From Alistipes sp. (lineage in GTDB: Bacteria; Bacteroidota; Bacteroidia; Bacteroidales; Rikenellaceae): 40,349 nt of DNA. The notes beneath the pieces are model-generated. The model did no database searches. It was not told the DNA's origin and saw only the letters and a list, made by a program, of their open reading frames with translations. Position 1 is the first letter of the stretch. Each line of letters starts with the position of its first letter. Positions 6,443 to 39,379 of the stretch are shown here, one piece after another. Position numbers and translations under genes: made by a program. Location: contig JAFXHB010000083.1 of assembly GCA_017536605.1 (NCBI GenBank), positions 1 through 40,349 on the forward strand, written 5' to 3'.

Positions 6443-6456
6443 AGTTTTCAATTCTG

Positions 6457-21046: not shown

Positions 21047-21049
21047 ACT

Positions 21050-21817
21050 CTACCAATTCTTTGAGTTGTAAATATATCCTCCGGTCTGCTCCTTCAACTT
21101 ATCCTGTGTCTTGTCCTCCTCGGCCTGTATCGCCTGCAACATAGCCTCTTGTTGCTCCGGAGAGATGCCGTTTTGTTGAGGGCGGTTCTGTTGTTGCTGA
21201 TTCTGTTTATCTTGGTTTTGAGGAGAGTTCTCCTTGTTTTGAGGGTTGTTCTTATCCTCCTTGTTTTGGTCTTGGTTATTTTGATTTTGGTCGTTCTGCC
21301 CTTGCTCCTTGTTCTCTTGGTTTTGGTCTTGTTGCTGTTGTTGCTCCTGATTCTGCTCTTGTTGCTGCTGTTGCTGTTGTTGCATCAACTTTGTGTAGGC
21401 GTAGTTAAACTTCGCATCTTCATCATCAGGGTTCATACGCATCACATTGCGGTAACTCTCCAACGCCTTGTCAAACTTCTGTTGGGCGAATTGGGCGTTG
21501 CCGAGGTTGTAGAGGACATCTCTACGCTCCTTCTCGGTGCGTAACGTGTCAAGTGCGAGCGCGGAGAGAATCTTCTCCGCGGCATCGTATCGTTGAGTCT
21601 CAATCATCGCCGAGGCGAGGTTGTATTGAGCCTCAAAGAGGTCGGGGTTCTGCTCCAACGCCTTCTCGTATGCCGCTACGCTATGTGGGTAACTCTTGAA
21701 ATGGTGCATTATGTTACCCCAGCGAGTCCAACCCCTCTCGGGCATCTTCTGCGCGAGGCTCTCCGCCGATACGAAGAGTGCCAATACGACAACTATATAT
21801 CTAACTCTACTTATCAT
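21050..21817 (-). CDS. batC: BatC, TPR protein with a Q/N-rich linker
   Basis: TPR repeats (YNLGNA), polyQ linker, C-terminal EQ.EAMLQAI...KNW. Confidence 0.85.
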   Translation of the reverse strand: MISRVRYIVVVLALFVSAESLAQKMPERGWTRWGNIMHHFKSYPHSVAAYEKALEQNPDLFEAQYNLASAMIETQRYDAAEKILSALALDTLRTEKERRDVLYNLGNAQFAQQKFDKALESYRNVMRMNPDDEDAKFNYAYTKLMQQQQQQQQEQNQEQQQQQDQNQENKEQGQNDQNQNNQDQNKEDKNNPQNKENSPQNQDKQNQQQQNRPQQNGISPEQQEAMLQAIQAEEDKTQDKLKEQTGGYIYNSKNW

Positions 21818-22857
21818 CTCTTCTCATTCTTGGTGGGGGTATCCTCCGGCTCCTTCTCCTCTACCTCAACAGGTTTGGTCTCCTCAACGAAGTAGTACGC
21901 CTTATCAAATGCGAGTTCGTTATCCTCCGCCTCCGGTGTCGCCTTCGCAAACTTTACGAGGTCGGCATCGCGTAAGATGCTCACCAAATCCATCTTCGAC
22001 TTTTGGGATATCCTCTCGTCTTGCAGAGCCTCGATAATCTCGTCGGTAGCCATCTCCATCGCTCCTATGGAGAAGGCGTTGGCGATATAGGTGCGCAGAA
22101 TATCGCTCAAAGCCGAGTAATACTGCTTGTGCTTGCTATTCTGCCACAACTTCTGATTTTTGAGTCGCTCCAACGCCTCAATCGCTACGATGTGGGCAGG
22201 TGGTGGCGGTGGTGTCTTGAAGATGTCGCGCAGACGCTTTCCTCGTTTGTGCAGATGTCTTGCCAAGAGCCATATAAGGAGTGCCAAGAGCGCAATAACC
22301 GCAATCGCAATCGCCAAGTATCCCGAAATCTCGCCAAAGTAGAATTTAGGCCACATTTGAGGTTTTAGTGGGCGCAACACTGCGGTAGAGTCAATCCGGA
22401 AGGTCGTAACGACAATCGTATTCTCCTCGTCGGTAAAGAGCGTATCGACGATGTTCTTATCAACGTAGAGAGCCTGTCCGCGTCCAAGGTGGTAGATTCC
22501 CTCATCAAAGATGACCATCTCGTATCGCTTGCGAATAAGGTCGTGGCGACCTTCGCCCTTGATGGTATCCGGCTCAAAGTCCCGAATAATCTCCACGCTG
22601 GATACCTCCTTCCCCTCTTCGCTTGCGCGTTCAAAATCAAAGGTCGGGAAGACGATGTGCTGCATCACGTCCCTCTCTACCTCTATCGTATAGACGAATC
22701 TGTCGCCAATCTTGATAGAGTCCTTGTCCAAGTAGGCGGAGATGTACGGGTACTTGTCGCGTAGGGGTGTCGTCTTGGTGGTCGCGCTCTTGGAGCAGGC
22801 AACCGCAGATAGCAACACCGCTATAAACAGGATGGATATGTAGCGAGATAGCTTCAT
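21814..22857 (-). CDS. Conserved bat-operon membrane protein
   Basis: Signal/lipoprotein-like N-terminus, central TM, PPAH..A..AL, K.YYS.LS.ILR.YI, ADLVKFAK. Confidence 0.75.
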   Translation of the reverse strand: MKLSRYISILFIAVLLSAVACSKSATTKTTPLRDKYPYISAYLDKDSIKIGDRFVYTIEVERDVMQHIVFPTFDFERASEEGKEVSSVEIIRDFEPDTIKGEGRHDLIRKRYEMVIFDEGIYHLGRGQALYVDKNIVDTLFTDEENTIVVTTFRIDSTAVLRPLKPQMWPKFYFGEISGYLAIAIAVIALLALLIWLLARHLHKRGKRLRDIFKTPPPPPAHIVAIEALERLKNQKLWQNSKHKQYYSALSDILRTYIANAFSIGAMEMATDEIIEALQDERISQKSKMDLVSILRDADLVKFAKATPEAEDNELAFDKAYYFVEETKPVEVEEKEPEDTPTKNEKR

Positions 22858-23738
22858 CGTTTGTGGAATAGTTTTATCAACTCTGCAACATAGTCCGAAT
22901 CGGTTGAGATATCGGCTATATCTATGCGCTTGTGGCGTAGCAGGTCAAGCGTCTTTGCCTCGCGCTCGTTCCACGCCTCGGCGTAGTGGCGACGTACCGC
23001 TGCCGACGAGGTGTCAATCAACACCTTGCGGGCAGTCTCGGCATCTTGTAACTCTACCAAGCCTATATTCGGCAACTCCCTCTCGCGAGGGTCCGAAACC
23101 TTCAAGGCGATAATGTCGTGGCGCGAAGAGGCGATCTTCAACGCATCGCTCAACGCCTCGTCATCGCTCTTTGCATTTAGAAAGTCGGAGATAAGGAATG
23201 CGGTGCAACGCTTCTTGTTTACACCCGTAAAGTAGCGTACTGCCTCCGAAATAGCGGTGCCGTTTGATTCGGGTACAAAGCCAATCAACTCACGGATAAT
23301 CATCAAGATATGGCTACGTCCCCGCTTTGGAGGGATAAACTTCTCAACCCTATCCGAGAAGAAGATGCAACCCACCTTGTCGCCCGTCTGCGAGGCGGAG
23401 AATGCCAACACAGCAGCCAACTCGGCGATGATACTCTTTTTGAGGTTGTCGGTCGTACCGAACATACGCGAGCCGCTGACATCGACCATCAACATCATCG
23501 TCAATTCGCGATCCTCCTCATAGACCTTGATATGGGGCTTGCGTGAGCGTGCCGTAACGTTCCAGTCAATATCGCGGACATCGTCGCCAATGCGATATTC
23601 GCGTACCTCGGCAAAGGACATACCACGCCCCTTGAATGCCGTATGATACTTTCCTGCGAAGATCTCATTCGACAAACCTCGCGTCTTAATCTCAATCTTT
23701 CGGACGCGCTTTAAGATATCGTTTTCGGTAGGCTCCAT
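22854..23738 (-). CDS. DUF58 vWA-like MoxR partner
   Basis: FKGRGMSFAEVREY..GDDVRDIDWNVTAR, DVSGS, ISDF. Confidence 0.92.
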   Translation of the reverse strand: MEPTENDILKRVRKIEIKTRGLSNEIFAGKYHTAFKGRGMSFAEVREYRIGDDVRDIDWNVTARSRKPHIKVYEEDRELTMMLMVDVSGSRMFGTTDNLKKSIIAELAAVLAFSASQTGDKVGCIFFSDRVEKFIPPKRGRSHILMIIRELIGFVPESNGTAISEAVRYFTGVNKKRCTAFLISDFLNAKSDDEALSDALKIASSRHDIIALKVSDPRERELPNIGLVELQDAETARKVLIDTSSAAVRRHYAEAWNEREAKTLDLLRHKRIDIADISTDSDYVAELIKLFHKR

Positions 23739-24736
23739 TAAGGAACTATTACATTGTTCAATATCTCGGTGATAATATCCTCGGTGGTGATGTTCTCTGC
23801 CTCCGCCTCATAGGTCAAGCCGATACGGTGGCGCAAAACATCGTGGCATACGGCGCGTACATCCTCTGGAATGACGTAGCCTCTGCGACGGATAAATGCG
23901 TACGCACGAGCAGCCTTCGCAAGCGAGATGCTGGCACGAGGAGAGCCTCCGTAGGAGATGAGAGGCTGTAACTTTTCAAGGTTGTACGATGCAGGCTCGC
24001 GTGTAGCGAAGATGATATCTATAATGTACTTCTCAATCTTCTCGTCCATATAGACATCTTCAACGACCTTGCGTGCTTTGATGATATCCTCTGGTGAAAT
24101 AACCTGATTTGGTTGCGGCATACCTGCGCCCGAAAGGTTCATACGCACAATATCGCGCTCCTCCTCCTTGCGAGGATAGGTAATCTTTGCCTTCAACATA
24201 AAACGGTCCACCTGCGCCTCTGGAAGCGGGTATGTACCCTCCTGCTCCAACGGGTTCTGGGTAGCCAACACGAGGAATGGTTCAGGTAACTTGTAGGTGC
24301 TGTCGCCAATGGTTACCTGTCGCTCCTGCATCGCCTCCAAGAGTGCCGACTGTACCTTTGCAGGGGAGCGGTTAATCTCGTCCGCCAAGATAAAGTTTGC
24401 AAAAACGGGTCCCTTCTTTACGGTGAAGTCCTCTGTCTTCTGCGAGTAGATCAGAGTACCCACAATATCGGCAGGGAGCAAGTCTGGTGTAAACTGAATA
24501 CGCGAGAAGTCGGCGTTAATCGCCTTTGCCAAAGTGGTGATTGCCAAGGTCTTTGCCAAGCCCGGAACACCCTCCAAAAGAATGTGTCCATTTGAGAGGA
24601 GTCCAATCAGCAATGTGTCAACGAGGTGCTGTTGTCCCACGATGACCTTGCCCATCTCTGTACGCAGGGTATCCACGAAGAGGCTCTCGCGCTCAATGCG
24701 CTCATTCAACTCTTTGATGTTGATAATATCACTCAT
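23738..24736 (-). CDS. moxR: MoxR-family AAA+ ATPase
   Basis: LEGVPGLAKT, RIQFTPDLLPAD, DEINR, ATQNPLEQEGTYPLPEAQVDRF; start MSDII at 24736. Confidence 0.95.
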   Translation of the reverse strand: MSDIINIKELNERIERESLFVDTLRTEMGKVIVGQQHLVDTLLIGLLSNGHILLEGVPGLAKTLAITTLAKAINADFSRIQFTPDLLPADIVGTLIYSQKTEDFTVKKGPVFANFILADEINRSPAKVQSALLEAMQERQVTIGDSTYKLPEPFLVLATQNPLEQEGTYPLPEAQVDRFMLKAKITYPRKEEERDIVRMNLSGAGMPQPNQVISPEDIIKARKVVEDVYMDEKIEKYIIDIIFATREPASYNLEKLQPLISYGGSPRASISLAKAARAYAFIRRRGYVIPEDVRAVCHDVLRHRIGLTYEAEAENITTEDIITEILNNVIVP

Positions 24737-24755
24737 ATATCTATGTTGGTTTTTT

Positions 24756-24790
24756 GCCATTGGCCATTAGCTTTTGGCCATTAGCTTTTT
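24756..24790. repeat. Degenerate heptamer tandem repeat (GCCATTA-like)
   Basis: gccattg gccatta gcttttg gccatta gcttttt upstream of moxR. Confidence 0.65.
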
Positions 24791-27372: not shown

Positions 27373-27512
27373 AACAATTTTTGTACAGAGTGTGCCAACT
27401 TTGGGTAAAAAAAATAGAAAAAATTAAAATTTTATTATAAGTTCAATTATTTAACTTTCAAAAAGTTGTGCGATTTAGGACAAAATCGTTGTCAAAAAAA
27501 TGCACTTTCCCT

Positions 27513-27545
27513 CTTGACAAACGCTATTTTTGTGTTATATATTTG
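27513..27545 (+). promoter_or_regulatory. Host sigmaA-type promoter facing the phage-like operon
   Basis: CTTG (27513-27516), 21-nt spacer, TATATTTG (27538-27545); overlapped by an inverted repeat TTGTCAA/TTGACAA. Confidence 0.65.
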
Positions 27546-27702: not shown

Positions 27703-28122
27703 ATGAATCGTGCTTTATTGCAAGGTGCGGTTGAGGGGTTGGTGTCTGCCTATGGATACACCTTTTTGGTGGAGCATAAGGAGCGTGCGCCATTCCACAT
27801 CACCGCCTATCCGGCAGCCTTTATGGCTCCCCCAAAGTTCAATAAACAAGAGGGACGTCGATTTGGAAAGATTACATACGATATTTCGCTGGTCTTGATG
27901 CGTCAGGGTGCCAAGTTGTCATCGGCGGAGCGCAACGAGCGATATGCCGATATGGAGCGAGAACTCGTGGAGATGTTCGTAAAGTTGAGCAAACTTCCGC
28001 AGATAGCCTCTGTAAATGACCTTACGATAACGCCATACAACTCGACGATAGACCATCACGGGGCTATTGCAATGGTGGCGACAGCGCAGGTAGCAACACT
28101 TTTTGAAGAGAATAAGTTATGA
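27703..28122 (+). CDS. Hypothetical phage-like protein (possible tail terminator/completion protein)
   Basis: 139 aa; YP.AF..P and ITYDISLVLM pattern and size fit tail-completion proteins; ATGA overlap with the next gene. Function is inferred. Confidence 0.4.
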   Translation: MNRALLQGAVEGLVSAYGYTFLVEHKERAPFHITAYPAAFMAPPKFNKQEGRRFGKITYDISLVLMRQGAKLSSAERNERYADMERELVEMFVKLSKLPQIASVNDLTITPYNSTIDHHGAIAMVATAQVATLFEENKL

Positions 28123-29087
28123 AGATAGATTTTTCACCTAACGATTATACCCCTATTGAGCAGGGGTTGTGCTTCGGCTTCTCTACGGAGAGCGAGGAGC
28201 CGACAGATGTTGAGGTTGCGATTGTCAATGCCGATACCGATGAGGTTGTTGCCACCCAACTATTGCGACAGGTTGTGTCGGGCAAGGTCAATATCGCCCC
28301 ATACGTGGAGCGATTCTCTCAACGTGAGCCAAAAGCCTTTGGTAAAGAGGGCTCCTCGCTCTCGCTCTTGGAGGTGGTGCGATATAAGATTCGTATCGGC
28401 GACGTTGAGTCAGAGAGCGTTGCGGTGTCGCCTCTCCGATATGAGTTCTCTGCCCCTGCACTCATTACGAAGATGCCTCTGCGCCGTAAAATCTTCTATG
28501 ATGACTGCGACGAGTTACTCTTCGCCGTGCAGGATAGTACCGACGTGGATGTGGTGATAATGCCAAATATCGGGGCGGTTAAAAGCCTCTCGTACAAGGC
28601 CGCTTCGGGTGTTGTGCGCCTTCTTCTTACACCTTCGGAGTTTGGGCAAGAGGCGAGAAGAGTCTCTGTACTCATCAAACTCAACGCGCAGGATTGGTGT
28701 AGCGTGGAGTACGAGGTGTTGCAGCGTCGCGGACGCTCTCTCTGCGTGGTATGGGAGTCGGCGTGTGGCTCAATGGAGCGTTACATCTTCCCGATGACTT
28801 ACGCCCTGCGTAACGAGGTTACGAAGCAGCGTGTCGGAGATGGCACAAACCTGAATGCAGTGGCGATTATGCGCTCCAAAATTGTGCGAGCGATCTCCAA
28901 CTACGAGCCTTGCGATGTGATTGCTGCATTATCCGATATTATCGCCTCGCCGAAGGTCTGGATTGAACTTAATGCTCTTCTGCACAGGGTAGATGTCGTT
29001 ACTTCGGAGGAGTCCTACAACCTTCTTGGAGAGCCTAACTTTGTTGAGTTGGATTTGCGTATAGAGAGTAGGAGGGTGGCGTTATGA
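28119..29087 (+). CDS. Putative distal-tail/baseplate protein
   Basis: 322 aa, beta-rich; C-terminal W....G..E.Y.F and II.SPKVWI pattern recalls Bacteroidota phage tail proteins. Confidence 0.45.
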   Translation: MKIDFSPNDYTPIEQGLCFGFSTESEEPTDVEVAIVNADTDEVVATQLLRQVVSGKVNIAPYVERFSQREPKAFGKEGSSLSLLEVVRYKIRIGDVESESVAVSPLRYEFSAPALITKMPLRRKIFYDDCDELLFAVQDSTDVDVVIMPNIGAVKSLSYKAASGVVRLLLTPSEFGQEARRVSVLIKLNAQDWCSVEYEVLQRRGRSLCVVWESACGSMERYIFPMTYALRNEVTKQRVGDGTNLNAVAIMRSKIVRAISNYEPCDVIAALSDIIASPKVWIELNALLHRVDVVTSEESYNLLGEPNFVELDLRIESRRVAL

Positions 29088-31462
29088 TAGAGTTGATTGT
29101 AGATGGTCAGGTGTGCGACTTGGGTGATATGCCCACCCTGCCACTCAACTTTGATGCGGAGAGCCTGACCGACGTTGAGGGTGGGCGCAGCGGGCGCACG
29201 GTGGAACTTAATCTCCGCTCTACGCCGAAGAATGATACGCTGTTTGGGGCTTCGTGCGACCTCTACGCTGCGGAGTCATTCAACGCTCGCCACCACTCGG
29301 CGGTGGTTGTGGAGCAGGGGCTGACACTCTTTGCGGGAACGCTCGTTCTGCTCGCTACGGAGGTTGGCAGTGGCTACAAGGTACGCATCGTGGCGGGAGG
29401 CTGCAAGTGGATAGACGACGCGGTGTCGGCATCGCTTGATGATTTGCCGATAGATTTTCAGGGCAAACTCACGCTCACGACGATAGAGAACTCTTGGGAG
29501 AGCGATAGTGCAGTGCGATTTCTGCCGGTCTATCGTGGCGACTACAATATGAGTACCTCCTCGCACTCGACACACCCCGTTGAGCATATTATGTTGTCGG
29601 ACGACTTTCACCCCTTTATCTCGGTTGCGGAGATGGTGCGCTCTATGTTTGCCGGTTATGGTTATACGCTCAAAAGCGACCTGCTTGATAGCGACCTCTT
29701 TGCCTCGCTCTATATGAGTGGCGACTACACCCGCAGCAACCTTGCGACGGATAGTGCCAAGTGCGACTTCTTGGCGCGTCGCGCAGCCCCAATAACCGCT
29801 ACCGCCGATAGTACGGGTAGGGTATACTCCTCAACCGCATTCGCCTCGCATACGCTGGGCAACATCGTCGATACGGCAAACCCCAACGCCATTGACAGTG
29901 AGGGCAACCTGATGAGCGACACCTTCTCAACGAATGGTTGCTTTACGACGAATGACGACGGGCAGATAGTCTTCAAGCCTGTAACCTCCGTGAATGTCGG
30001 CTTTGTGTTGCACGCGGAGTACACTACCGACTACAAAATCGCCACTCGTGAGCGACTCTTTGGCTTTGATGTCTTTGAGGGGTTGAACGGAGTGTATATT
30101 GAGTATGCCCTCAATAACGCATTCAAGGATTACCGTAGAAGCATATCTCCGAATACGCTCTATCGTGCCGTAGTCTTCAACCATATTGAGGGGTACGAGT
30201 ATCGTCTGGTAGAGAAGTTAAAGAGTAACGTAAAGTTGCAGATAGGCTTGTGGGCATCGCGCTCGGCGCAGGTGTTGAGTGCCTCGGCAGAGGGGGACTC
30301 CTTAAACCTCTACTATCGTGCCGTAGGCGAAGAGTCTTGGCAGCCCTACACCGATGATTGGGCCCTCTATGCCGGACACGTAGAGGAGGAGGGACAGGTA
30401 GATGTTGAGTGTACGGTGCGTATCCCTCCACAGGAGGTAAATCGTGGCGAGGAACTTATACTTGACAAGTTTTGGTTTGGCGGAGCCGAGTCGGGTATGA
30501 GCCTGACGCTCGGCACGGGAACATCGTTAAGACCATACTTTACCAACGTGGCGGGTTACGGCTCTACATTAACCTACGCTGACATCGCTCCGAAGCAGGT
30601 GCGCCAGATTGACCTTTTGAGGGCATTAGCGCAGATGTTTAACCTTGCTTTTATAACCGACGAGGAGCGAAAGGTTGTACGAATGGAGCCACTTGAAGAT
30701 GCCTACAAGGGTGGCAAGTTGGTAGATTGGACCTCGCGCATAGACTTTGCACAGCCGATAATGCTCTGCGATACGGGTATTGACCGCCCGCAAGATTATA
30801 TCCTCTCCTACATAGACGCGGATAGGGCGTCGCACCTCTACAACCTCGCCAACGATACGACGCTTGGAAGTTGGGCTTGGCGCAACCCGCTGTATGGTAC
30901 GACGCAGAGTACAAAACGTATTGGTAACCGACTCTTCACGACAACGCTGAATGCGGAGGGGGTGTTGGGGTGTGCCCCTTCGGCTTCGCTGTTGCAGGTG
31001 GGCGACGTTACCCTTGACGAGGCGGCAACCTATGGAGAGTTTACCCACCGTATAGTGAGTTATCGAGGTCTGATATCGTTGCCGAGTGGCGAGAATTGGA
31101 ACGGCAAAGGGTCAGCGCAGGGCTTTCCGTACGCAACATTTATAGATGGCGACAGCGGCATAAATCTCTGCTTCGAGGAGCGTGAAGGTGTAGAGGGACT
31201 TGCACGCTACTACAAAGAGGCACACCTTCGCGAAGAGTGCCGACAGAGGTTGTCGCTTACGCTGCAACTTACACCGGCAGAGATAGTGCATCTCACCAAA
31301 GATGATGGCCATAGTCCATCGGTATTGGATAGATACCGTTTTACGATATTGGGTGAGAGTGCGATATTTCGCTTGGTGCAAATTGAGGCGTGGGACCCGT
31401 TGCAGATGACAGTAAAGTGTGTTTTTCAACGTGAATTGGTAGATGGCTATGACGCAGTATGA
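29084..31462 (+). CDS. Putative tail hub/tip protein
   Basis: 792 aa; N-terminus IELIVDGQVCDL...LTDV...LRSTPKND.LF and later QIDLLRALAQMFNL and VDWTSRID, as in Bacteroidota siphovirus tail proteins. Confidence 0.55.
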   Translation: MIELIVDGQVCDLGDMPTLPLNFDAESLTDVEGGRSGRTVELNLRSTPKNDTLFGASCDLYAAESFNARHHSAVVVEQGLTLFAGTLVLLATEVGSGYKVRIVAGGCKWIDDAVSASLDDLPIDFQGKLTLTTIENSWESDSAVRFLPVYRGDYNMSTSSHSTHPVEHIMLSDDFHPFISVAEMVRSMFAGYGYTLKSDLLDSDLFASLYMSGDYTRSNLATDSAKCDFLARRAAPITATADSTGRVYSSTAFASHTLGNIVDTANPNAIDSEGNLMSDTFSTNGCFTTNDDGQIVFKPVTSVNVGFVLHAEYTTDYKIATRERLFGFDVFEGLNGVYIEYALNNAFKDYRRSISPNTLYRAVVFNHIEGYEYRLVEKLKSNVKLQIGLWASRSAQVLSASAEGDSLNLYYRAVGEESWQPYTDDWALYAGHVEEEGQVDVECTVRIPPQEVNRGEELILDKFWFGGAESGMSLTLGTGTSLRPYFTNVAGYGSTLTYADIAPKQVRQIDLLRALAQMFNLAFITDEERKVVRMEPLEDAYKGGKLVDWTSRIDFAQPIMLCDTGIDRPQDYILSYIDADRASHLYNLANDTTLGSWAWRNPLYGTTQSTKRIGNRLFTTTLNAEGVLGCAPSASLLQVGDVTLDEAATYGEFTHRIVSYRGLISLPSGENWNGKGSAQGFPYATFIDGDSGINLCFEEREGVEGLARYYKEAHLREECRQRLSLTLQLTPAEIVHLTKDDGHSPSVLDRYRFTILGESAIFRLVQIEAWDPLQMTVKCVFQRELVDGYDAV

Positions 31463-31742
31463 ACAGAAACTTATATTTCCTCTCTACAATATGATTAGAG
31501 GGAAGAGCTCCGCAGAGGCTATCAGGATATTGTGGCGTCAAGGTCTGTTGGACCGGAAGGGTATGGAGCGAGGCTACTTTGTGCGTGAGGTGGCACGACG
31601 TGTCCGCGAGGGGGAGATGAAGAGCCTTGCGATAACCAACGTCGCAATCGAAGCCCGATGCTCCTACGAGAAGGTACGACGAGCCGTCTATGAAACCGAA
31701 AAAGAGAACAAGAAAAGAGTAACAAATGGAGACAAAAATTAA
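31443..31742 (+). CDS. Small basic protein with a possible C-terminal HTH
   Basis: 99 aa (alternative start 31449), Arg/Lys-rich; AITNVAIEARCSYEKVRRAVY resembles a helix-turn-helix. Confidence 0.45.
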   Translation: MAMTQYEQKLIFPLYNMIRGKSSAEAIRILWRQGLLDRKGMERGYFVREVARRVREGEMKSLAITNVAIEARCSYEKVRRAVYETEKENKKRVTNGDKN

Positions 31743-32586
31743 AATTACAAACGCTGCCGAGCAGTGCGTCATTGACATTGAAGGAGTTATTGGCGTGAGC
31801 GAAGAGAGCCAATTTGCGCACCCCTCGCAGCGCGTCGCCACCTATGAACGCTTCCGAGAGGTGGTAGATGAGATTTCCGCCATTGAGGCATCGGAGGTGG
31901 TGGTGAATATCCGCTCGGCGGGAGGAGATGTGAACGACGCACTCCTAATCTACGAGGCACTTTCGGCACTTGAAACCAAGGTTACGACTCGTTGCTACGG
32001 ATATGTCGCTTCGGCAGCAACAATTATTGCGCAGGCCGCCTCCGAGGGCTGTCGTGAGATCGCCTCCTCGGCACTCTACCTGATACACCAATCGAGTTGT
32101 GTGGTGGAGGGTAATGCCTCGGACGTGGAGGAGCGTCTAAACCTTCTGCGCAAGACCGACGAGCGCATATCTTCGCTCTACGCCGAGCGTTCGGGTCGTG
32201 AGGTTGCCCAATTTGAGCAACTGATGGCCGAGAATGGCGGACGAGGTCGCTGGCTCTCGCCGGAGGAGACCGTTGAGAATGGGTTGGCCGATGTCGTCAT
32301 AGGTCGTGAGGAGAGTGAGCGACGCGAGTCTATCGTGGATAGGGTGAAGCGTTGGTTCTCGCCTGCCGAGAGCGAGAAGGAGGAGTCCTCCGATATAAAT
32401 GTCCTTCACACCCCCGTTGATGCGGTGGCGACAAGTTCTGTCATAGCATTTGAGGAGGGGCAGAAGCAGGCCTCACCCTCAAAGGTTAAGCCGGTTGAGG
32501 ACCCGTCGGTTGAGGAGATGCGCCTGTCGGGCAACATCTCGGCATACGACGAGGATGCAAAGCGACTTCGCCTGATGGGTATGTAG
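31726..32586 (+). CDS. ClpP-like (S14) prohead maturation protease with a short scaffold-like tail
   Basis: IDIEGVIG, VNIRSAGGDV..AL.IY, G.VASAATII (Ser), YLIH (His), WLSPEE.V..GLAD. Confidence 0.85.
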   Translation: METKIKITNAAEQCVIDIEGVIGVSEESQFAHPSQRVATYERFREVVDEISAIEASEVVVNIRSAGGDVNDALLIYEALSALETKVTTRCYGYVASAATIIAQAASEGCREIASSALYLIHQSSCVVEGNASDVEERLNLLRKTDERISSLYAERSGREVAQFEQLMAENGGRGRWLSPEETVENGLADVVIGREESERRESIVDRVKRWFSPAESEKEESSDINVLHTPVDAVATSSVIAFEEGQKQASPSKVKPVEDPSVEEMRLSGNISAYDEDAKRLRLMGM

Positions 32587-32631
32587 CCCAAAACAAAAGA
32601 AAAACTTTAACAACTAAAAAAGAGAAAAACT

Positions 32632-33603
32632 ATGTTAATTGAAAATCCAAAAGTCTATTCGAATACCGAAGTTGATTCAATCTTTTTCCGTCCATCTTTC
32701 TGCGGAAAGTCAGCCGAAGAGATGGGTATTCACGTAATCTACAATATGCCAATGCCTACAACTGTGCAGGTTTTCGCAAATAAGCGTCGTGTTTTGGAGC
32801 CGTTTGAGTCGGGTTGGAGTGGCTCTGCTACAAATAAGCCGATGCAGGTAACTATCGCGATGAACCGCGTGAAGGCGGAGTCGTCGTACTCGGCAGAGGA
32901 CTACTTCTCTACGGTGTTTGAGTTGATTACCAACTCCTCGGACGTAAACCTCGGCGACCTGACCGGCACCGAACTTGAAAAGGCGGAGACCGAGTTGTTC
33001 CGTAAGGCGATTGCCAAGGAGATCTATGCGACAATGTGGTTTGGCGACGAGAACGGTGAGTTCTACAGTTACGACTCCTTCAATGGCTTCTTGCCAACCC
33101 TTATTCGTACTGCCGTTGATAATGGCACCTCTACGAACTACCAGATTGTTCAGGAGAAGCCGGCAAAGACCGCTGTTCAGATCTTCCGCGATGCGTGGGA
33201 TAACGCTTCGGGAACTATCCGCACTCTCGCGTCGGAGGGCAACCTCGCCTTCTACGTAAGTTCGGACGTGTATGACGACTACCAATTCTACCTTGACGAG
33301 AATGGTACCAACTCGGCATACGTTGATATGCAGAGTGGTCGCCAGAAGTTGTACTACCACGGTATCCCTGTGATTGAGGTGCCAATCACCGGTGCAAACT
33401 TGGACTCTCTCGGCTCGTTCTGCCTCTTGACCGACAGTCGTAACCTTGTCTTGGCACTCAACACCGCCTCTTCGCCGGAGAACGAGGTGAGAATGTGGTA
33501 CAACCCTGACGAGATGGAGAATCGCCAGCGTGCCGTATTCTTGGCAGGTACAGCAATCGTTGATCTCGATTTGGTGTCGGGCTACATCGTTACTTCATAC
33601 TAA
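32632..33603 (+). CDS. Putative major capsid protein
   Basis: 323 aa directly after the head protease; WFGD, FNGF, FYVS..VY..Y, Y.GIPVIEVP, N.V.A.N and WYN.DE..NR pattern; strongly A-rich translation-initiation region. Confidence 0.7.
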   Translation: MLIENPKVYSNTEVDSIFFRPSFCGKSAEEMGIHVIYNMPMPTTVQVFANKRRVLEPFESGWSGSATNKPMQVTIAMNRVKAESSYSAEDYFSTVFELITNSSDVNLGDLTGTELEKAETELFRKAIAKEIYATMWFGDENGEFYSYDSFNGFLPTLIRTAVDNGTSTNYQIVQEKPAKTAVQIFRDAWDNASGTIRTLASEGNLAFYVSSDVYDDYQFYLDENGTNSAYVDMQSGRQKLYYHGIPVIEVPITGANLDSLGSFCLLTDSRNLVLALNTASSPENEVRMWYNPDEMENRQRAVFLAGTAIVDLDLVSGYIVTSY

Positions 33604-33615
33604 TAGTGGCTCCTG

Positions 33616-34089
33616 ATGGTTGACCAGAAACCTGTTGGTGGGGTAGATGCCGTTGTCCTCTACCCCGCCGATGCGGTCAAACACGCACTCTTTTCGCAGG
33701 GTGGTTGCGAGGTTGAGTTTTGGGAGGACGTGCAGGGCGTGGCCGTTAATCTGATTGAAGATGCCTCCCTCTACGAGGAGGTTGCCAAGTCGGTGAATGG
33801 CATCGTCGGAGTAACCCATAACCTGACTCTCGTAGCACGCTACAAAGATGCGGGTGAATGGTTGGCGACACCATTTCTGGATAGGTTGGCACAGGAGGGT
33901 GCTATCGCTACGGTCGCTTTGAGTGATGGTCGCCGTATAGTTGTCGGCTACTCCCAACACTTTGGCGAGGAGCAACCCCTGATGCTCGAAAGCGTAACCA
34001 CCTCTTCGGGTAAAGCGTTGCTTGACACTCCGAGCGTAACCTTGCGATTGGTGTCGCACGATACGGCGTTGGCCGCAGAGATAATTTAA
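33616..34089 (+). CDS. Putative tail tube / major tail protein
   Basis: 157 aa; GGV..V.LY N-terminus, DGR..VVG and SGK...D...VTL.L pattern of Bacteroidota phage tube proteins. Confidence 0.5.
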   Translation: MVDQKPVGGVDAVVLYPADAVKHALFSQGGCEVEFWEDVQGVAVNLIEDASLYEEVAKSVNGIVGVTHNLTLVARYKDAGEWLATPFLDRLAQEGAIATVALSDGRRIVVGYSQHFGEEQPLMLESVTTSSGKALLDTPSVTLRLVSHDTALAAEII

Positions 34090-34107
34090 TTAACCAGAGA
34101 AAAAGAT

Positions 34108-35328
34108 ATGGACAAAACAGAGAGAAAAAGTATAATATGTGTCCCCAAAAACGAGGCCGACACCTACTACGCCACAAGTGGGCGACGTGTAGAGAGCGAT
34201 GACTATTGGCGGTGGGGCGTTGATAACTGCTTTCCGGAGGCTTTGGCCCTACTTTCGCGCCGCTCAACGGTGCATCGTCGTATCGTAAACGATAAGGCTG
34301 ACTACATATCGGGCAAGGGATTTACCTACGACTGCGAGATTCCGTTGCTTGGGGAGATTGTGGCGTGTGCCAACGGCGAGGGTGAGTCGTTGCGACAGGT
34401 TGTAAATAAGGTCGCTTTTGATAAGATACTCTTTGGAAACGCCTTTATGGAGGTTGTAACCGATGAGGCGCACTCTTTCTTGTCGTTCTACCACCAAGAT
34501 GCTTCGCGTTGTCGCGTTGCGAAGTGTGGTCGTCATATCCTCATACATCACGATTGGTCGCAGTTTAAGCGTGGCGAGGCAGTGTCATTGCCCCTCTATC
34601 CGAACTTTGAGAAGCAGAGCGACGGTATGCTCCACTCAATAATCCACTATAAAGATTATGAGCCGATGTTTGAACACTACGGAGTACCACAGTATATCGC
34701 CGGAATGAATGTCTCGGCGATAGCCTACAAGACGGACCGTTGGAATATCGCCCGTTTGGACTCTTCGTTCCAACCATCGGGAATAATGATGTTGGAGAAC
34801 ACGATTGACAGCGAGGAGGAGGCGGCGAGGTTGATGCGCGTTGCCGAGAGTCGCTTTGCGGGACGTCCCGGACAGGTGATGTTCATCATCAAGGGTGGTA
34901 GCGAGGAGGAGAGTTCCCGCTTTATACCGATTGAGTCAAAGAGCGATGGCGATTGGAAGGCTCTGCACGAGCAATCTACCAACGATATTGTGGTGGCGCA
35001 CTCGTGGTTCCGTTCGTTGAGTGGTCTGGACTACACGACAGGCTTCAATGCCGAGCGAATACTCCACGAGTACGAGGTTGCACTCAATACGGTGATTCTC
35101 GGCGAGCAGGCGGAGTTGATGGAGCCGATTCTCAACGCCATCTCCACCATACTCTCGGTAGATGCCTCTTCGCTCGTGATAGTCAATCGCCCGCCGACCA
35201 ACTCAAAGCCTGTCTATATGAAGGTGTGGGAGGCTCGCAAGGCCGATGGTCTTGACTACGACGAGAGCGATGAGCGTCAGCAGCTCTTCCTGTCGGAGAT
35301 TGTGGGTAGTAATGTAACAAGAATTTAA
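34108..35328 (+). CDS. Phage portal protein
   Basis: 406 aa; WG.DN.FP..L......S.VH..I...K..YI.G.G, D..LFGNAF, HYGVP.Y, IVVAH pattern. Confidence 0.75.
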   Translation: MDKTERKSIICVPKNEADTYYATSGRRVESDDYWRWGVDNCFPEALALLSRRSTVHRRIVNDKADYISGKGFTYDCEIPLLGEIVACANGEGESLRQVVNKVAFDKILFGNAFMEVVTDEAHSFLSFYHQDASRCRVAKCGRHILIHHDWSQFKRGEAVSLPLYPNFEKQSDGMLHSIIHYKDYEPMFEHYGVPQYIAGMNVSAIAYKTDRWNIARLDSSFQPSGIMMLENTIDSEEEAARLMRVAESRFAGRPGQVMFIIKGGSEEESSRFIPIESKSDGDWKALHEQSTNDIVVAHSWFRSLSGLDYTTGFNAERILHEYEVALNTVILGEQAELMEPILNAISTILSVDASSLVIVNRPPTNSKPVYMKVWEARKADGLDYDESDERQQLFLSEIVGSNVTRI

Positions 35329-35332
35329 GGCT

Positions 35333-35806
35333 ATGAAGAGTTTAATTACACAAGAGATGGTTGTGGCGTTGGCGTTTGGCGATGGAGAGTATCTCTCGCC
35401 GGAGGCGGTCTGCGAGTCCGATATAGCCATTGCCGAGTCGCGTTATCTGCGACCTGTGGTGGGCGACAAGTTGTGGCAGGCACTCTTGGAGGGTAAATAC
35501 CCGACACTCGTTGAGGAGTATGTTGCCCCTGCGCTTGCTATGGCGGTGCGCACGTTGATACAGCCGGCGTTGAATGTGCGCACGGGGCAGTGCGGACTCT
35601 CAATCGCTTCGACCTATCGCTCGGATAGCGCAACGAGGTCGGCTACGGAGTCGCTGTTGCGTTCACTTGTAAAACGCCGAAAGGCTCTATTCAAGCGTCT
35701 TTCGGACCATTTGAAAACCAATGCTGCGGAGTATGTCGAGTATGATGTATCCCGCGACGCATTACAAAGATGTTCAATTTATGGAGGTATCGTTCAAATT
35801 CATTAG
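35333..35806 (+). CDS. Putative head-tail adaptor (DUF6712-like)
   Basis: 157 aa, helical; I..AE..YLRPVVG..L...L motif; directly after the portal. Confidence 0.5.
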   Translation: MKSLITQEMVVALAFGDGEYLSPEAVCESDIAIAESRYLRPVVGDKLWQALLEGKYPTLVEEYVAPALAMAVRTLIQPALNVRTGQCGLSIASTYRSDSATRSATESLLRSLVKRRKALFKRLSDHLKTNAAEYVEYDVSRDALQRCSIYGGIVQIH

Positions 35807-36227
35807 TGGTGCAGTTTTGGGCATATTGTCGCTCTTTGCACCGATAAAAGCAACAATTATCTGTACGTTGCTGTTTGTTGCCGTTGATTTTATCTTCGGA
35901 GTCCTCGCCTCGCGTGAGGAGAGTCGTCGTCAGGGTAAGCAGTGGTACTTCTCCTCGCAGGAGGCGTGGCGCACTGTGCGTAAGTCGTGTTTTGTACTGC
36001 TTACGATCGTTATGACGTGGTTGGTTGAGAGTTGTGTGCTTGATTTTATGAATCTTCACCTGACACGAATGGTTGCGGGTGTGATTTGCGGTGTTGAGAT
36101 GTGGTCCTTGTTGGAGAATATCTCTGTGCTTTCAGATGCACGCATATTCGTATGGCTACGTCAATATGTCCACCGAAGAATCGAAAAGGAGATAGGTCCT
36201 TGCGATGATGACAAGGGGGCTGCGTAA
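35781..36227 (+). CDS. Phage holin
   Basis: 148 aa from MEVSF; 3-4 TM segments, D...GV.AS, T.RK, E.WS.LEN, charged C-terminus; directly upstream of the lysin. Confidence 0.8.
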   Translation: MEVSFKFISGAVLGILSLFAPIKATIICTLLFVAVDFIFGVLASREESRRQGKQWYFSSQEAWRTVRKSCFVLLTIVMTWLVESCVLDFMNLHLTRMVAGVICGVEMWSLLENISVLSDARIFVWLRQYVHRRIEKEIGPCDDDKGAA

Positions 36228-36630
36228 CAACAATCCGGGTAATATCCGACTCGGCTCGTTCAAGTATCGGGGCGAGGTGGCGAGGAGTAGCGACAGGGCA
36301 TTTAGGCAGTTTGAGAGTATGGCGTGGGGCTATCGTGCAATGTTTGTGCTGTTGCACACCTACGCCCTGCGCTACCAATGTCGCACCCTACGCGACTACA
36401 TTTCGCGCTATGCTCCTCCATCGGAGAATAACACCGAGGCGTATATACGACGTGTGGCTTGTACCACACACCTTGCTCCCGATGAGGTTCTCTCTACGAC
36501 AGATGGTGCGGTGATGACGGCTGTTGTAGCAGCGATGTCGGAGGTGGAGAATGGCATAGCCGCCAATATGAGTGATATTTGGCGTGGTTGGGAACTATTT
36601 ATTGCAGATTTTCAACCTCTTCGGCATTAA
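36205..36630 (+). CDS. Putative endolysin (lysozyme-like, RNNNPGNIR family)
   Basis: RGLRNNNPGNIR, F.QF....WG.RA, I.RYAPP.ENNT.AYI, AM..VENG. Confidence 0.78.
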   Translation: MMTRGLRNNNPGNIRLGSFKYRGEVARSSDRAFRQFESMAWGYRAMFVLLHTYALRYQCRTLRDYISRYAPPSENNTEAYIRRVACTTHLAPDEVLSTTDGAVMTAVVAAMSEVENGIAANMSDIWRGWELFIADFQPLRH

Positions 36631-36636
36631 TTTTTT

Positions 36637-36690
36637 CAGAGTTACCTAATTTGCAGTTGCTATGTATAATTAGGTAACTTTGTTTTTTTT
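36637..36690 (+). terminator. Intrinsic terminator closing the phage-like operon
   Basis: cagagttacctaatt (36637-36651) / aattaggtaactttg (36668-36682) followed by 8 T. Confidence 0.75.
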
Positions 36691-36743
36691 ACAACATTTT
36701 TTTACAACATATCTCTTTGCTTTTTTCTTTCGGAATAATTTCT

Positions 36744-36751
36744 TACCTTTG
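36744..36751 (+). promoter_or_regulatory. -7 promoter element for the lipoprotein islet
   Basis: TACCTTTG followed by a ~280-nt leader. Confidence 0.5.
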
Positions 36752-37034
36752 TACCGCTGGTGATGCTATCATTGGCATACATATATTAGTGAAAGTGTTT
36801 CGCTAATCCTTGATAACGAAATTTGGCGATTTTGTACAAGTAAGGATAAGCAATAAAACACTCACCACCGTATTTGGTATATTCTTTTCTATATACCATT
36901 CGGTGTGGGGTATTGTTTATTTACTTGTGGGCCACGCCAAATGCCTGTTATCAGATAAACGAACGACCTCACACTTTCTTTGTTTTTATAAACGCCCTTT
37001 TGGGGTTGGTGGGCAAACAAAAAATTCATTTATT

Positions 37035-37466
37035 ATGAAAAAACTATTTTTATTAGTAGTTGTTGCAATCTCTGTTGCATCGTGTGGCACATTGAAGAAT
37101 TCTGCCACTTACCGTAGTTTCAGCGTAAGTACTCCGTATGCTGTGCCGGTTATTGCCGATTTAGACATTGCAAGTACAAGAATTACCTATGCCTATATTC
37201 CGACAAAGGTTGTGAAGAATGGCGGTGATGGCAATGTAATCAACACAGCCATTCGAGAAGCGTTGATGACCAATGGTAATGCAGATGTGTTGGTCGGACT
37301 TGAAACTCAAATCAAGTATAATTCGAGAAAGAAAATCAAGTCTATTACTCTCACTGGCTATCCAGCCAAATACAAAAATTTTAGGAATATAGAGACTAAT
37401 ACTTGGTATTCTAACCCTTATTTCCAAGAGCCACATCAAAGACCAAGTGTCTTGAATGTTAAATAA
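37035..37466 (+). CDS. Hypothetical lipoprotein (143 aa), AT-rich
   Basis: MKKLFLLVVVAISVASC lipobox; A-rich upstream region supports this start over 36810. Confidence 0.75.
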   Translation: MKKLFLLVVVAISVASCGTLKNSATYRSFSVSTPYAVPVIADLDIASTRITYAYIPTKVVKNGGDGNVINTAIREALMTNGNADVLVGLETQIKYNSRKKIKSITLTGYPAKYKNFRNIETNTWYSNPYFQEPHQRPSVLNVK

Positions 37467-37482
37467 AAGTAAGGTATATGTT

Positions 37483-37830
37483 ATGAGAAAGATATTGTAC
37501 ATATTTATATGCTTATTTGCACTCACTGCAACGAGTTGCGACAAATATAGCTTATTCGGTAACTCTTGGGTAACTATCGAGTATGACTATGAGGATTACT
37601 ATATTTTCAAGTATAAAGATTTAAAAGTTACCTACAATGGAAAAGAGTACAATTCAATTGGTAGATATAAAGTTCCAGAAGGCTCAATAGTGAAATTGGA
37701 ATGGTATTGGGATAATGAGCACGCAGGAGCAGATACATGGAAAAAAGCCTCATATGAAGTAAGTGCCATTGGCTCAATGAGTATAGTAATTGAAGGAGGA
37801 GATGCACATGTTACATTCAAGAACAAGTAA
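37483..37830 (+). CDS. Hypothetical lipoprotein (115 aa), AT-rich
   Basis: MRKILYIFICLFALTATSC-DK lipobox; beta-rich mature part. Confidence 0.72.
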   Translation: MRKILYIFICLFALTATSCDKYSLFGNSWVTIEYDYEDYYIFKYKDLKVTYNGKEYNSIGRYKVPEGSIVKLEWYWDNEHAGADTWKKASYEVSAIGSMSIVIEGGDAHVTFKNK

Positions 37831-37912
37831 CCAATAATTGTTATGATGCACCAAAGTAGATAACTCCTAAATTAGTATAATTATGCTAAATTTAACTATC
37901 TTTGTGGTAGTT

Positions 37913-39379
37913 ATGAGGCGTATATTGGAGAATCTACGAAATCGTATTGCAGAGATACCGATGGCGATAGTGATGTTGCTATTTGCCCTCGGTATCTCTT
38001 TTGCTGAATATATCTGCCTGCCGATGTGGCTGTGTATAACGATAGTGCTATCATCGCTTCTTGGAGTGCTGTTTGTTCGTGGTATGTGGCAGAGGTTGGC
38101 GGTTGCGATATTGGTTGTGTCGCTTGGTGTAACACTGCACTCGCTCTCCTATGTGGGAGAGGTGCCGTACAATCGTCCGCTGGATATGACGCTCAAAATC
38201 ACGCGCTCAACGACGGTGCGTGGCGACTATGCAGGTGCGGAGGCGACCATCTGCGAGTGTGAAGAGCCCTCGCTTGTGGGACGTATGGTTGTGGTGTGGT
38301 GCGACTCGGCAACAACCCTTACGGCGCGGGACCGCATCTCTCTACGGCAGAAGATTCGCCCCTTCCGCGAGGAGCGCAGGGCGTATGCCGAACTGATGCA
38401 CCACAGGGGTTTTGTAGGTGCTACAACCATCTACCCACAACAGCACTTTACGCTTACGCCTGCCCGCTACACCTCGTTGCACGATTGGGCTACGGAGCGA
38501 CTACGTGAGCAGATACCTGCGGGCGATGCGCGGGCTGTGGTGTTGGCGATGGTTACGGGTTATCGTGGTGAGATAGATACCGCCTTGCGCGAGAAGTATG
38601 CCCTGTCGGGTGCTTCGCACCTCTTGGCGGTGTCGGGACTCCATATAGGCATTGTCTTTATGCTGATAAATATCTTGTTATTGCCGCTGTTGCTCCTCAC
38701 ATACGGTAAGGTGGCGAGGTCGGTATTGGCTATTTTGCTGATTTGGTTGTATGTGGTGTTGTGTGGCGCACCTCCGAGTGCGATACGCGCTGCGGTGATG
38801 TTTTCGCTCTTGCAGATAGCCCTCTCTTCGCCCTATCGCTATCTATCGTTGAATGTACTCGCCGGCACAGCCCTTATTATGGCGATGTTTGATACACACC
38901 TTATATTTGACATCTCGTTTCAACTCTCCTTCTTGGCAGTTGCGGGCATACTCCTTTGGGCAGTCCCTGCCTGTCGGTTGTTGAGGACTCCTTACCGCTT
39001 GGTAAATGGTGTTGTGGCGGTGCTATTGGTTGGTGTATCTTCCACAGTAGCAACCCTCCCGATTGTGTCGGAGAGTTTTGGCATCGTGTCGCTTATTGGT
39101 GTGATAATCAACCCGATAGTGATTGCTCTGGCTAATGTGTTGGTTGTGGCAGGCGTTTTTACGATGTTGATTCCGATACCTGTCGTGGCGAGCCTTACGG
39201 AGGGTGTCGCGCATCTGCAAAATACGATTGTGGAGTGGGTGCAGTCGCTTCCGTGGGGATACTTTGAGTATAAGATGCCGGAGTGGCTCGTGTGGGTAAT
39301 ATATCTTGTATTTGCAGCAATAACCCTATTTGTTTGGTCAATAAAGCGCGAGAGGCGTTCAGAAATTGCGGATTATTAG
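37913..39379 (+). CDS. comEC: ComEC/Rec2 competence (DNA uptake) membrane protein without the C-terminal MBL domain
   Basis: SGASHLLAVSGLHIG, PSAIRAAVM, FDISFQLSFLAV; multi-TM; TATCTTTG promoter element at 37897-37904 supports the 37913 start. Confidence 0.9.
   Translation: MRRILENLRNRIAEIPMAIVMLLFALGISFAEYICLPMWLCITIVLSSLLGVLFVRGMWQRLAVAILVVSLGVTLHSLSYVGEVPYNRPLDMTLKITRSTTVRGDYAGAEATICECEEPSLVGRMVVVWCDSATTLTARDRISLRQKIRPFREERRAYAELMHHRGFVGATTIYPQQHFTLTPARYTSLHDWATERLREQIPAGDARAVVLAMVTGYRGEIDTALREKYALSGASHLLAVSGLHIGIVFMLINILLLPLLLLTYGKVARSVLAILLIWLYVVLCGAPPSAIRAAVMFSLLQIALSSPYRYLSLNVLAGTALIMAMFDTHLIFDISFQLSFLAVAGILLWAVPACRLLRTPYRLVNGVVAVLLVGVSSTVATLPIVSESFGIVSLIGVIINPIVIALANVLVVAGVFTMLIPIPVVASLTEGVAHLQNTIVEWVQSLPWGYFEYKMPEWLVWVIYLVFAAITLFVWSIKRERRSEIADY

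Follow-up and report, generated by a model that had tools for sequence, protein, structure and literature searches.

A dispersed phage-derived head, tail-tip and lysis gene block of Alistipes as the structural locus of a likely gene transfer agent

The structural block and its signals

The stretch of DNA considered here, hereafter the window, is the whole of contig JAFXHB010000083.1 (40,349 nucleotides (nt); C74 in our numbering) of an Alistipes sp. genome (GCA_017536605.1) of 1.42 Mb and 76% completeness. It carries a block of eleven plus-strand open reading frames (ORFs) between positions 27703 and 36630, named g1 to g11, which code for phage-type head, tail and lysis proteins (Table 1) and which likely represent the structural and lysis locus of a gene transfer agent (GTA) whose large terminase is encoded elsewhere in the genome. 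For closer study, 40 well-assembled carrier genomes from 17 genera of the Rikenellaceae were considered together with the source genome, giving 41 loci, of which 21 belong to Alistipes and 20 to other genera.

Table 1. Features of the structural block in the window (contig C74) and of the associated loci on contigs C59 and C138 of the same genome
Feature	Position	Strand	Product or type	Evidence
Promoter	27514..27545	+	Bacteroidota-type, TTGACA-18-TATATTTG	Pattern also upstream of orthologous blocks
g1	27703..28122	+	139 aa, likely tail terminator/completion protein	Position, joint loss with g7
g2	28119..29087	+	322 aa, likely distal tail protein	Position before hub
g3	29084..31462	+	792 aa, gp27-type baseplate hub with C1q/TNF-like jelly-roll insert	Structure model
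g4	31449..31742	+	97 aa, small helical protein of phage origin	Present in 31/41 loci
g5	31726..32586	+	286 aa, ClpP-type head maturation protease	PF00574 (E 3e-29), phrog_94 (E 8e-41)
g6	32632..33603	+	323 aa, major capsid protein, HK97 fold	Structure model
g7	33616..34089	+	157 aa, likely tail tube protein	Position after capsid, size, joint loss with g1
g8	34108..35328	+	406 aa, portal protein	phrog_11226 (E 3.5e-18)
g9	35333..35806	+	157 aa, DUF6712, likely head-tail adaptor	PF20459 (E 9e-10), position after portal
g10	35781..36227	+	148 aa, holin	PF05105 (E 4e-9)
g11	36208..36630	+	140 aa, endolysin	phrog_873 (E 2e-42)
Terminator	36637..36686 (hairpin 36637-36678)	+	Intrinsic terminator-like hairpin and T8 tail	Fold energy, shuffles
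Repressor	C59:24789-25463	-	CI-like repressor (HTH_3 and S24)	Domain matches
s101	C59, between repressor and terL	Divergent from repressor	101 aa	ORF
terL	C59:25944-27338	+	464 aa, large terminase	phrog_38 (E 9e-85)
DUF6549 gene	C138:6350-7039		Putative spanin-like protein	Position in related phages, N-terminal hydrophobic stretch

The initial annotation of the window had described eleven intact, co-oriented genes with several ATGA-type overlaps between one host-type promoter and one strong terminator, and most of this description holds. Each block gene covers 92-100% of the profile built from its orthologues when the source-genome row is compared with it, so that none is truncated or frameshifted. 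The gaps at the gene junctions range from -86 to +45 nt with the longest starts used; 4-nt ATGA overlaps occur only twice, between g1 and g2 and between g2 and g3. The extent of the profile match suggests that the holin most likely starts at 35781 rather than at 35721. The promoter pattern is found upstream of 34 of the 41 orthologous blocks despite their differing flanks and at four of 522 AT-rich TAnnTTTG sites of the source genome, and because of this difference it is taken to be more than a chance match; a plain promoter scan by itself was not above chance (13 sites found, 12.7 expected). The terminator hairpin has a predicted energy of -20.9 kcal/mol (z -5.1), none of 200 shuffles being equally stable, and was absent from the output of a simple terminator scan. 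The tRNA target and long terminal direct repeats that the annotation had reported missing were also not found by a tRNA search of the window and a repeat search at the block. The gene mqnA lies directly to the left of the block and comEC to the right, as had been stated, but two low-GC ORFs intervene between the terminator and comEC. The GC content of the block is 52%, and most of its genes fall within the host range of GC content and codon usage, with g4 and the endolysin gene g11 at the low end.

The identities of the protease, capsid, portal, hub, holin and endolysin genes are established, as is that of the terminase gene on C59. Residues Ser96, His121 and Asp189 of the protease are conserved in all 40 full-length copies, and Glu114 of the endolysin, which also matches the endolysin in PDB entry 7q47 (E 2e-14), in 22 of 22 copies. 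The capsid model (predicted local distance difference test (pLDDT) 72.7) has its Foldseek match to the DT57C capsid at E 3.5e-10, with further matches to phiRSA1, T5, the RcGTA capsid (6tb9) and encapsulins at 8-16% identity, while the portal protein also matches PF04860 (E 4e-8) below the curated cut-off. For the hub protein g3 (pLDDT 88.9), the top Foldseek matches are tail tips and the closest predicted structures are uncharacterised tailed-phage proteins; its best structural match is the baseplate of phage 7-7-1 (9rku; Z 11.8, root-mean-square deviation 5.1, 303 aligned), and Mu gp44 (1wru) is matched with a Z of 10.0. The insert at residues about 225-488 of the g3 model resembles TNF/C1q folds and phage fibre domains (Z 7-8.6) and is likely the receptor-binding part, for which it is a candidate on the basis of the modelled fold.

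Searches of Pfam, PHROG, PDB sequences and the ESM Atlas, as well as the names of homologues, failed to give names to g1, g2, g4, g7 and s101. For g1 there is no Pfam or PHROG match and for g2 no informative family or PDB match, while the sole family match of g7 is the unnamed phrog_19091. Homologues of these genes are nevertheless found in related phages: that of g1 is present there, that of g2 directly precedes the g3 homologue, and that of g7 occurs in all three phage records searched. The small g4 gene occupies the place that in related phages is taken by the end of the tape measure gene, and in a prophage relic of another genome (G101:C19) its homologue stands directly after the tape measure C-terminus. 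The g9 homologues of two genera (G044, locus L165; G039, L166) are 330-379 amino acids (aa) long with a long Ser/Thr/Glu-rich insertion; these are also two genera without a tail tip, and the insertion might act as a stalk that replaces the tail.

Terminase, repressor and spanin-like genes at further loci

Pfam and PHROG searches of the block itself revealed neither a terminase nor a tape measure gene. A search of the source genome with Terminase_6N led to a second locus on contig C59 (24789-27338), where a CI-like repressor, s101 and terL form a module that sits between host genes. The Walker A lysine, the Walker B motif and five nuclease acidic residues are present in TerL, and nine motif residues are conserved in 41 of 41 loci. 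Repressor and terL occur together in 40 of the 41 loci and s101 in 37, and the Ala, Gly, Ser and Lys residues of repressor self-cleavage are found in 34, 37, 36 and 36 of 39 copies, respectively. A third locus, on contig C138, was found by searching the source genome with proteins of related phages and contains the DUF6549 gene. In 20 short DUF6549 loci that were fetched, which include prophage and in-block copies, this gene follows holA or its neighbour in 14, and in four of the 20 non-Alistipes loci it lies inside the block. The putative spanin-like role of its product is suggested by its position after the lysin in related phages and by the hydrophobic stretch at its N-terminus. A gene at C110:10853-11269 was rejected as a part of the system: although matched by a phage lysin, it is a host glucosaminidase-like gene beside aspS.

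Host genes flank all three loci (C74, C59 and C138), and the three integrase-family matches of the source genome are all on other contigs. In ten closed or near-closed Alistipes genomes terL lies 0.7-2.6 Mb from the capsid gene by coordinates, while in four of the 41 loci, all of other genera (G065, G027, G044 and G039), it still stands beside the head genes as it does in phages. The eleven genes of the cassette of about 9 kb described in the initial annotation are thus present, but the cassette is not self-contained, as terL, the repressor and the spanin-like gene lie at other loci.

The repressor locus contains a palindrome of about TTCAA-N4-TTGAA. Its best match in the source genome is at window positions 27440-27457, about 60 nt upstream of the block promoter. 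An operator common to both loci was considered and rejected, as with the crude matrix used the scores of most orthologous upstream regions do not exceed those of shuffles, and by eye no obvious DNA repair gene stands among the ORFs adjacent to the six best palindrome sites of the source genome. Homologues of the repressor, recognised by similarity, also occur in five of five genomes without the element (24-48% identity). One genome (G294) carries two complete repressor-s101-terL modules (C3 and C11; loci L228 and L229) that are not sisters in the TerL tree, reflecting either contamination or transfer. Another (G101) holds both the prophage relic on C19 (L230, L311) and a host-type copy on C7 (L231), with terL beside the structural genes.

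Distribution, descent and selection

The capsid gene was identified in 264 of 301 Rikenellaceae genomes, occurring once in 260 of these, and in 201 of the 214 genomes that are at least 90% complete, and terL in 270 of the 301. Seven genera (22 genomes) lack the capsid gene, and all but one of these genomes also lack the terminase. Outside the family, terminase matches were obtained in four of the 347 genomes that represent the remaining families of the order. The best 80 of 495 GTDB matches are all titled Alistipes or Rikenellaceae. Nine sampled genomes from six of the lacking genera form one branch in the RpoBC tree (support 0.999); because the order in which this branch and two carrier genera (genus labels g17 and g11) arose has a support of just 0.51, one gain, or one gain and one loss, would both fit.

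The protease, capsid, portal and adaptor genes are present in all 41 loci, with one broken protease and one split portal, and the hub is kept in 37. In the carrier genera g17 and g11 nothing beyond head, motor and adaptor is retained; the lysis genes are kept in most Alistipes. Among 80 further loci, the capsid gene was intact in 80 of 80, the portal gene in 73 of 73, g2 in 69 of 69 scorable Alistipes loci and g3 in 69 of 71. The left flank carries corA/mqnA in 19 of the 21 Alistipes loci, and other flanks are seen in other genera. A first set of ortholog profiles, together with a simple gene caller, was dropped on account of contamination with opposite-frame ORFs in high-GC genomes. Several short IMG/VR records (L091, L094, L095, L101 and L103) have the host-type gene set, with g3 directly before g5 and no tape measure gene, and are probably pieces of chromosomes called as viruses. 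In two further records (L119 and L120) the capsid gene is interrupted by 6-7.5 kb.

A tree of the element based on g5, g6, g8, g9 and terL was compared with an RpoBC tree of the same 40 genomes, the source genome lacking rpoB and not being included. The two have 27 of 37 splits in common, where random trees share 0.2 on average and three at most, and the patristic distances correlate with an r of 0.92; among the splits supported at 0.95 or more, one is in conflict. The five-gene tree separates the host copies (support 0.99) from five IMG/VR phages and one prophage relic. The dN/dS ratios, calculated by the pooled Nei-Gojobori method on up to six independent close pairs and rough because dS reaches 1.4, are 0.11-0.34 for g1 to g11 (portal 0.11); at the terminase locus the values are 0.05 (repressor), 0.10 (terL) and 0.25 (s101). 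The block genes thereby fall in the range of their neighbours (comEC 0.26, mqnA 0.13), the value for rpoB being 0.035. Presence across the Rikenellaceae, congruence with the species tree and dN/dS well below 1 (here below 0.35) had been proposed as a check on the initial annotation, and all were observed; together with the names of the records of relatives they support its proposal of a host-maintained, vertically inherited phage-derived module. That the element is a domesticated phage-derived system under selection is held with high confidence.

Signs of exchange were also seen at and beside the block. Between the genomes of two species (G128 and G165), comEC and the next gene to the right of the block (L130, L131) differ by a dS of 0.03-0.04, compared with 0.38 for rpoB and 0.2-0.8 inside the block, a difference that suggests recent chromosomal exchange immediately next to it. 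In another pair (G222 and G249; L134, L138), dS is 0.39-0.46 for g2, g4 and g9, 0.07-0.11 for g6 and g8 and 0.04 for rpoB, which indicates that close species have exchanged individual genes of the block in a mosaic fashion.

Related phages and stepwise gene loss

The relatives of the element are uncultured Bacteroidales phages and prophages of 35-44 kb in IMG/VR (L096-L116 and L121; G648-G652) and the relic G101:C19, and no close cultured phage was found in INPHARED. Their terminases are 60-62%, their portals 60-65% and their capsids 45-46% identical to those of the element. The gene order in these phages, which corresponds to that of the element, is terS, terL, x32, g1, (neck), g2, g3, tape measure, g5-g9 and lysis. 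Their genomes encode a complete small terminase that includes the helix-turn-helix, a 155-aa protein in the neck position, fibres and a tape measure protein of 1070-1491 aa. The genes for replication, integration, the tape measure, the neck and fibres have been lost from the host element. In one provirus among these records (L111, about 4400-6800) the last ~38 codons of the tape measure gene are repeated in four additional short copies that are separated by differing genes, an arrangement that resembles a cassette array regenerating the end of this gene.

Remnants of several of these losses are visible outside Alistipes. An ORF of 60-117 aa that matches the end of phage tape measure proteins (E about 2e-4) occurs in eight of the 20 non-Alistipes loci and in none of the 21 Alistipes loci. 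Tape measure matches in two genomes (G179 and G116) were discarded, as they belong to other elements with their own integrase or capsid genes. A small terminase lacking residues 1 to about 45, which contain the helix-turn-helix, is encoded in six of the 20 non-Alistipes loci, no small terminase of any form was found in the 21 Alistipes loci, that of the source genome among them, and the helix-turn-helix profile gave nothing at E<0.05 in the 41 host loci. In four closed Alistipes genomes no small terminase stub was found, in a search with one positive control. Short ORFs before terL in G044 and G039 resemble such stubs by eye, but were not matched by the profile. The 155-aa neck-position gene was not found in five genomes, in a search that had no positive control.

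The putative tail terminator and tube genes g1 and g7 are 5.5 kb apart and have largely been lost together: of the 64 loci scorable among 80 fetched, 40 have both genes, 22 have neither and two are discordant. A tree of 88 loci, comprising these 64, the 21 Alistipes loci and three outgroup loci, with several genomes entering twice, requires six joint losses of g1 and g7 and two losses of g1 alone. A genome-wide search did not find g7 in 12 of the 41 carriers, seven of which are closed or nearly closed, and gave a weak distant match in a thirteenth.

A likely gene transfer agent and the alternatives

A complete head and packaging set, consisting of an HK97 capsid, its protease, a portal and a TerL with intact motifs, is thus distributed over two loci. 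This gene content points to a GTA, in which the block would be the structural and lysis locus, terL would be supplied from elsewhere and HK97-type heads would be filled with host DNA; the probability of this reading is put at roughly 60%. Small heads filled with random host DNA are the most likely product because the constant core is head and motor, because the reader of the packaging site was lost first and because the distances between the genes prevent their joint packaging, as is also reported for RcGTA (PMC7947584) and FpGTA (PMC12946183). In the proposed mechanism, the CI-like repressor with its intact S24 self-cleavage domain would keep the divergent s101-terL promoter shut and would likely be cut after DNA damage, whereupon s101 or another factor likely activates the structural operon through its conserved promoter. 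Proheads would be built from protease, capsid and portal, and TerL, working without a sequence-reading small subunit, would start at unspecific sites and fill them with host DNA; the system would be unable to excise or copy itself or, split by up to 2 Mb, to package itself. A very short tube, or no tube at all, would connect the g2/g3 tail tip to the neck, the g3 jelly-roll would be the likely receptor binder, and the producing cell would be lysed by holin, endolysin and spanin-like protein. That this would be the first GTA of the Bacteroidota, with a new particle architecture that joins a siphophage-derived head, a tape-measure-less tip on the neck, a TerL free of a small subunit and a DNA-damage switch, and with six independent Alistipes lineages doing without tube or terminator, is a tentative joint claim, less likely than not.

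Several observations weigh against the gene transfer reading. The roles of g1, g2, g7 and g9 are deduced from position in related phages. No tape measure gene was found in the 41 loci, and genome-wide matches to PF10145 are patchy, the inspected ones belonging to other mobile elements, a negative that is weak by itself because this profile misses the tape measure of G649 and G650, which belong to the same phage family; the absence of the gene is likely rather than proven, and a very divergent or tiny one may lie elsewhere. No way is known by which DNA would pass a Gram-negative envelope in the absence of a tape measure protein. A search for the tail tip was negative in G044, G039 and G069, and of the 20 non-Alistipes genomes 14 have no holin gene and 17 lack this endolysin, both counts referring to the locus only (the holin is present in 24 of all 41 loci). 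A tree of TerL alone, with 24 host and three phage rows, does not unite the host copies in one branch, and a single origin is neither shown nor rejected (approximately unbiased test, p-AU 0.39). In orthologous loci the repressor palindrome is not consistently upstream of the structural operon, and the regulatory link between the loci is for this reason unproven. Three runs labelled as RNA cover block, flanks and spacers at a flat depth like that of a DNA run, and therefore look like DNA carry-over. Entries of a gut particle survey named A. megaguti and A. avistercoris are presumably Alistipes. In the survey these entries show ordinary prophage induction, and of 63 packaging events in three donors none was a GTA event of the Rikenellaceae (PMC12946183).

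The lack of a tape measure gene, the receptor-like insert of a hub that most loci retain and the lysis genes of most Alistipes would also suit a weapon or lysis device akin to PBSX, whose particles kill or adsorb to competitors, or release DNA by lysis, and deliver no genes; PBSX packages chromosomal DNA without injecting it, according to the accessible part of the same report (PMC12946183). A killing particle, however, predicts that tube and tip are the constrained parts, whereas here, among the structural parts, constraint is strongest on terminase (dN/dS 0.10) and portal (0.11) and tube and tip are dispensable, and no sheath gene was seen, so that such a device is considered unlikely. If the particles were tail-less heads that borrow tails from co-resident or infecting phages of the same family, as capsid-forming phage-inducible chromosomal islands (PICIs) do, the invariant core of head, motor and adaptor, the basal genera g17 and g11 with only that core and the presence of closely related tailed phages in the same hosts would be accounted for. 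The g2 and g3 genes, though, are intact in nearly all other lineages and would be pointless if a helper gave whole tails, and the integrase, att site and replication genes of PICIs are absent; borrowed tails are accordingly an improbable solution.

A role in anti-phage interference, in which the repressor is cut on infection or prophage induction and related phages then meet competition from the host's capsid, portal and unspecific terminase, with small or wrongly filled heads and early lysis of the cell as the outcome, is made plausible by the CI-like switch with its conserved cleavage residues and by the 60-65% identity of terminase and portal to those of extant phages, which would permit cross-assembly. 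Since a self-sufficient head set with maturation protease and tail tip exceeds the needs of interference, this too is given low odds. Far less probable is an ordinary defective prophage that slowly decays or is repeatedly re-acquired. The many losses (tape measure, neck, fibres, small terminase, g1 with g7, g4 and, in some lineages, lysis genes) and the seven genera without the element could be read in this way, but the near-universal single copy, the fixed Alistipes flanks (19/21), the congruence of the trees, dN/dS far below 1, invariant catalytic residues, conservation of the promoter and the clean loss of whole genes, which leaves hardly any pseudogenes, speak for maintenance. The element does not show the pattern of patchy presence, variable sites, an integrase or replication module and pseudogenes by which a prophage is recognised.

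Comparison with known systems

Among described systems, the GTA of Faecalibacterium prausnitzii (FpGTA) offers several likenesses in the accessible sections of its description: it belongs to a gut anaerobe, is near-ubiquitous in its genus, combines a head operon of about 10 kb with a second locus and has a small terminase without its DNA-binding domain (PMC12946183), as do six of the 20 non-Alistipes loci. The loss of this domain is common to FpGTA and RcGTA in the portions consulted of the two accounts (PMC12946183; PMC7947584). FpGTA is split in two operons and forms 40 nm heads without visible tails, but it differs in belonging to another phylum and in being podovirus-like, where the Alistipes system has siphophage-type relatives, and its particles and their 9 kb DNA have been shown, whereas the Alistipes system is known from genes alone (PMC12946183). 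Judged by the same sections, a further difference is that in Alistipes the terminase, together with a CI-like repressor, is split off rather than the tail tip.

GTAs of the RcGTA type likewise consist, as far as the available part of the source describes, of chromosomal head-tail genes at several loci without replication or integration functions (PMC7947584). The protease-capsid-portal-adaptor set and the HK97 capsid with its match to 6tb9 are further likenesses, but the capsid similarity is at fold level only (16% identity), the Alistipes system being nearest to Bacteroidales phages. RcGTA-type clusters include a tape measure protein, whereas the Alistipes system has no tape measure gene and no small terminase, can dispense with the tube and retains a phage-type repressor. 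Judged from the missing tape measure gene and the merely fold-level capsid similarity, the Alistipes system is not a member of the RcGTA family. PICIs are mobile and self-packaging, with an integrase, an att site and replication genes, and the capsid-forming ones use phage tails. These share head, portal, protease, terminase and adaptor genes without a full tail, but the Alistipes system is fixed and split and encodes a tail tip and lysis proteins itself; an integrase, att site and replication genes are seen at none of its loci, which are fixed and far apart. PBSX of Bacillus subtilis has a full contractile tail, while that of the Alistipes system is reduced to the tip. It resembles the latter in being a conserved defective prophage with a repressor, and it packages host DNA in the accessible account (PMC12946183). 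The phage-derived S24 SOS repressors of Bacteroidetes share the HTH_3 and S24 domains, the Ala-Gly site, the Ser-Lys dyad, a chromosomal location and strong conservation, but the motifs given for them are GGA-N5-TCC and CTAA-N5-TTAG, unlike the Alistipes palindrome, and the accessible text makes no mention of Alistipes or Rikenellaceae (PMC8565304).

No description of the element was found in the literature on GTAs or domesticated prophages of Alistipes, the Rikenellaceae or the Bacteroidota, subscription journals being outside the scope, and it is not discussed in the accessible parts of 10.64898/2026.06.25.734096 and PMC12694917.

Neighbouring features of the window

The two ORFs between the terminator and comEC (36810-37830) have a GC content of 36%, lipoprotein-like N-termini and a codon usage at the 1-2 percentile of the genome, and they represent a strain-variable insert, since another strain joins position 36555 to 37939 and so bridges both. 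On the minus strand, at 19038-24760, lies a cluster of genes for a MoxR ATPase, a DUF58-like protein, two vWA proteins and a TPR protein, which we take to be a Bat-type operon.

Implications

Few bacteria in the guts of people and animals are commoner than Alistipes and its relatives. If the gene transfer reading is true, the family would as a whole have a permanent means of exchanging chromosomal genes, and no GTA described from this phylum was found in the literature. The locus probably inflates virus catalogues, as the short IMG/VR contigs L091, L094 and L103 have the host-type gene set. The system can be tested in deposited Alistipes strains; the capsid gene is present in the records of A. 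putredinis DSM 17216 and A. muris DSM 112343. Two questions thereby become testable, namely whether a large terminase is able to package DNA with no small subunit to assist it, and whether DNA delivery by a siphophage tail tip is possible when the tape measure protein is missing. The series from phage through stub-bearing genera and Alistipes to tube-less Alistipes records a stepwise phage domestication, in the course of which the recognition of a packaging sequence was lost, tail length was lost and the genes were dispersed.

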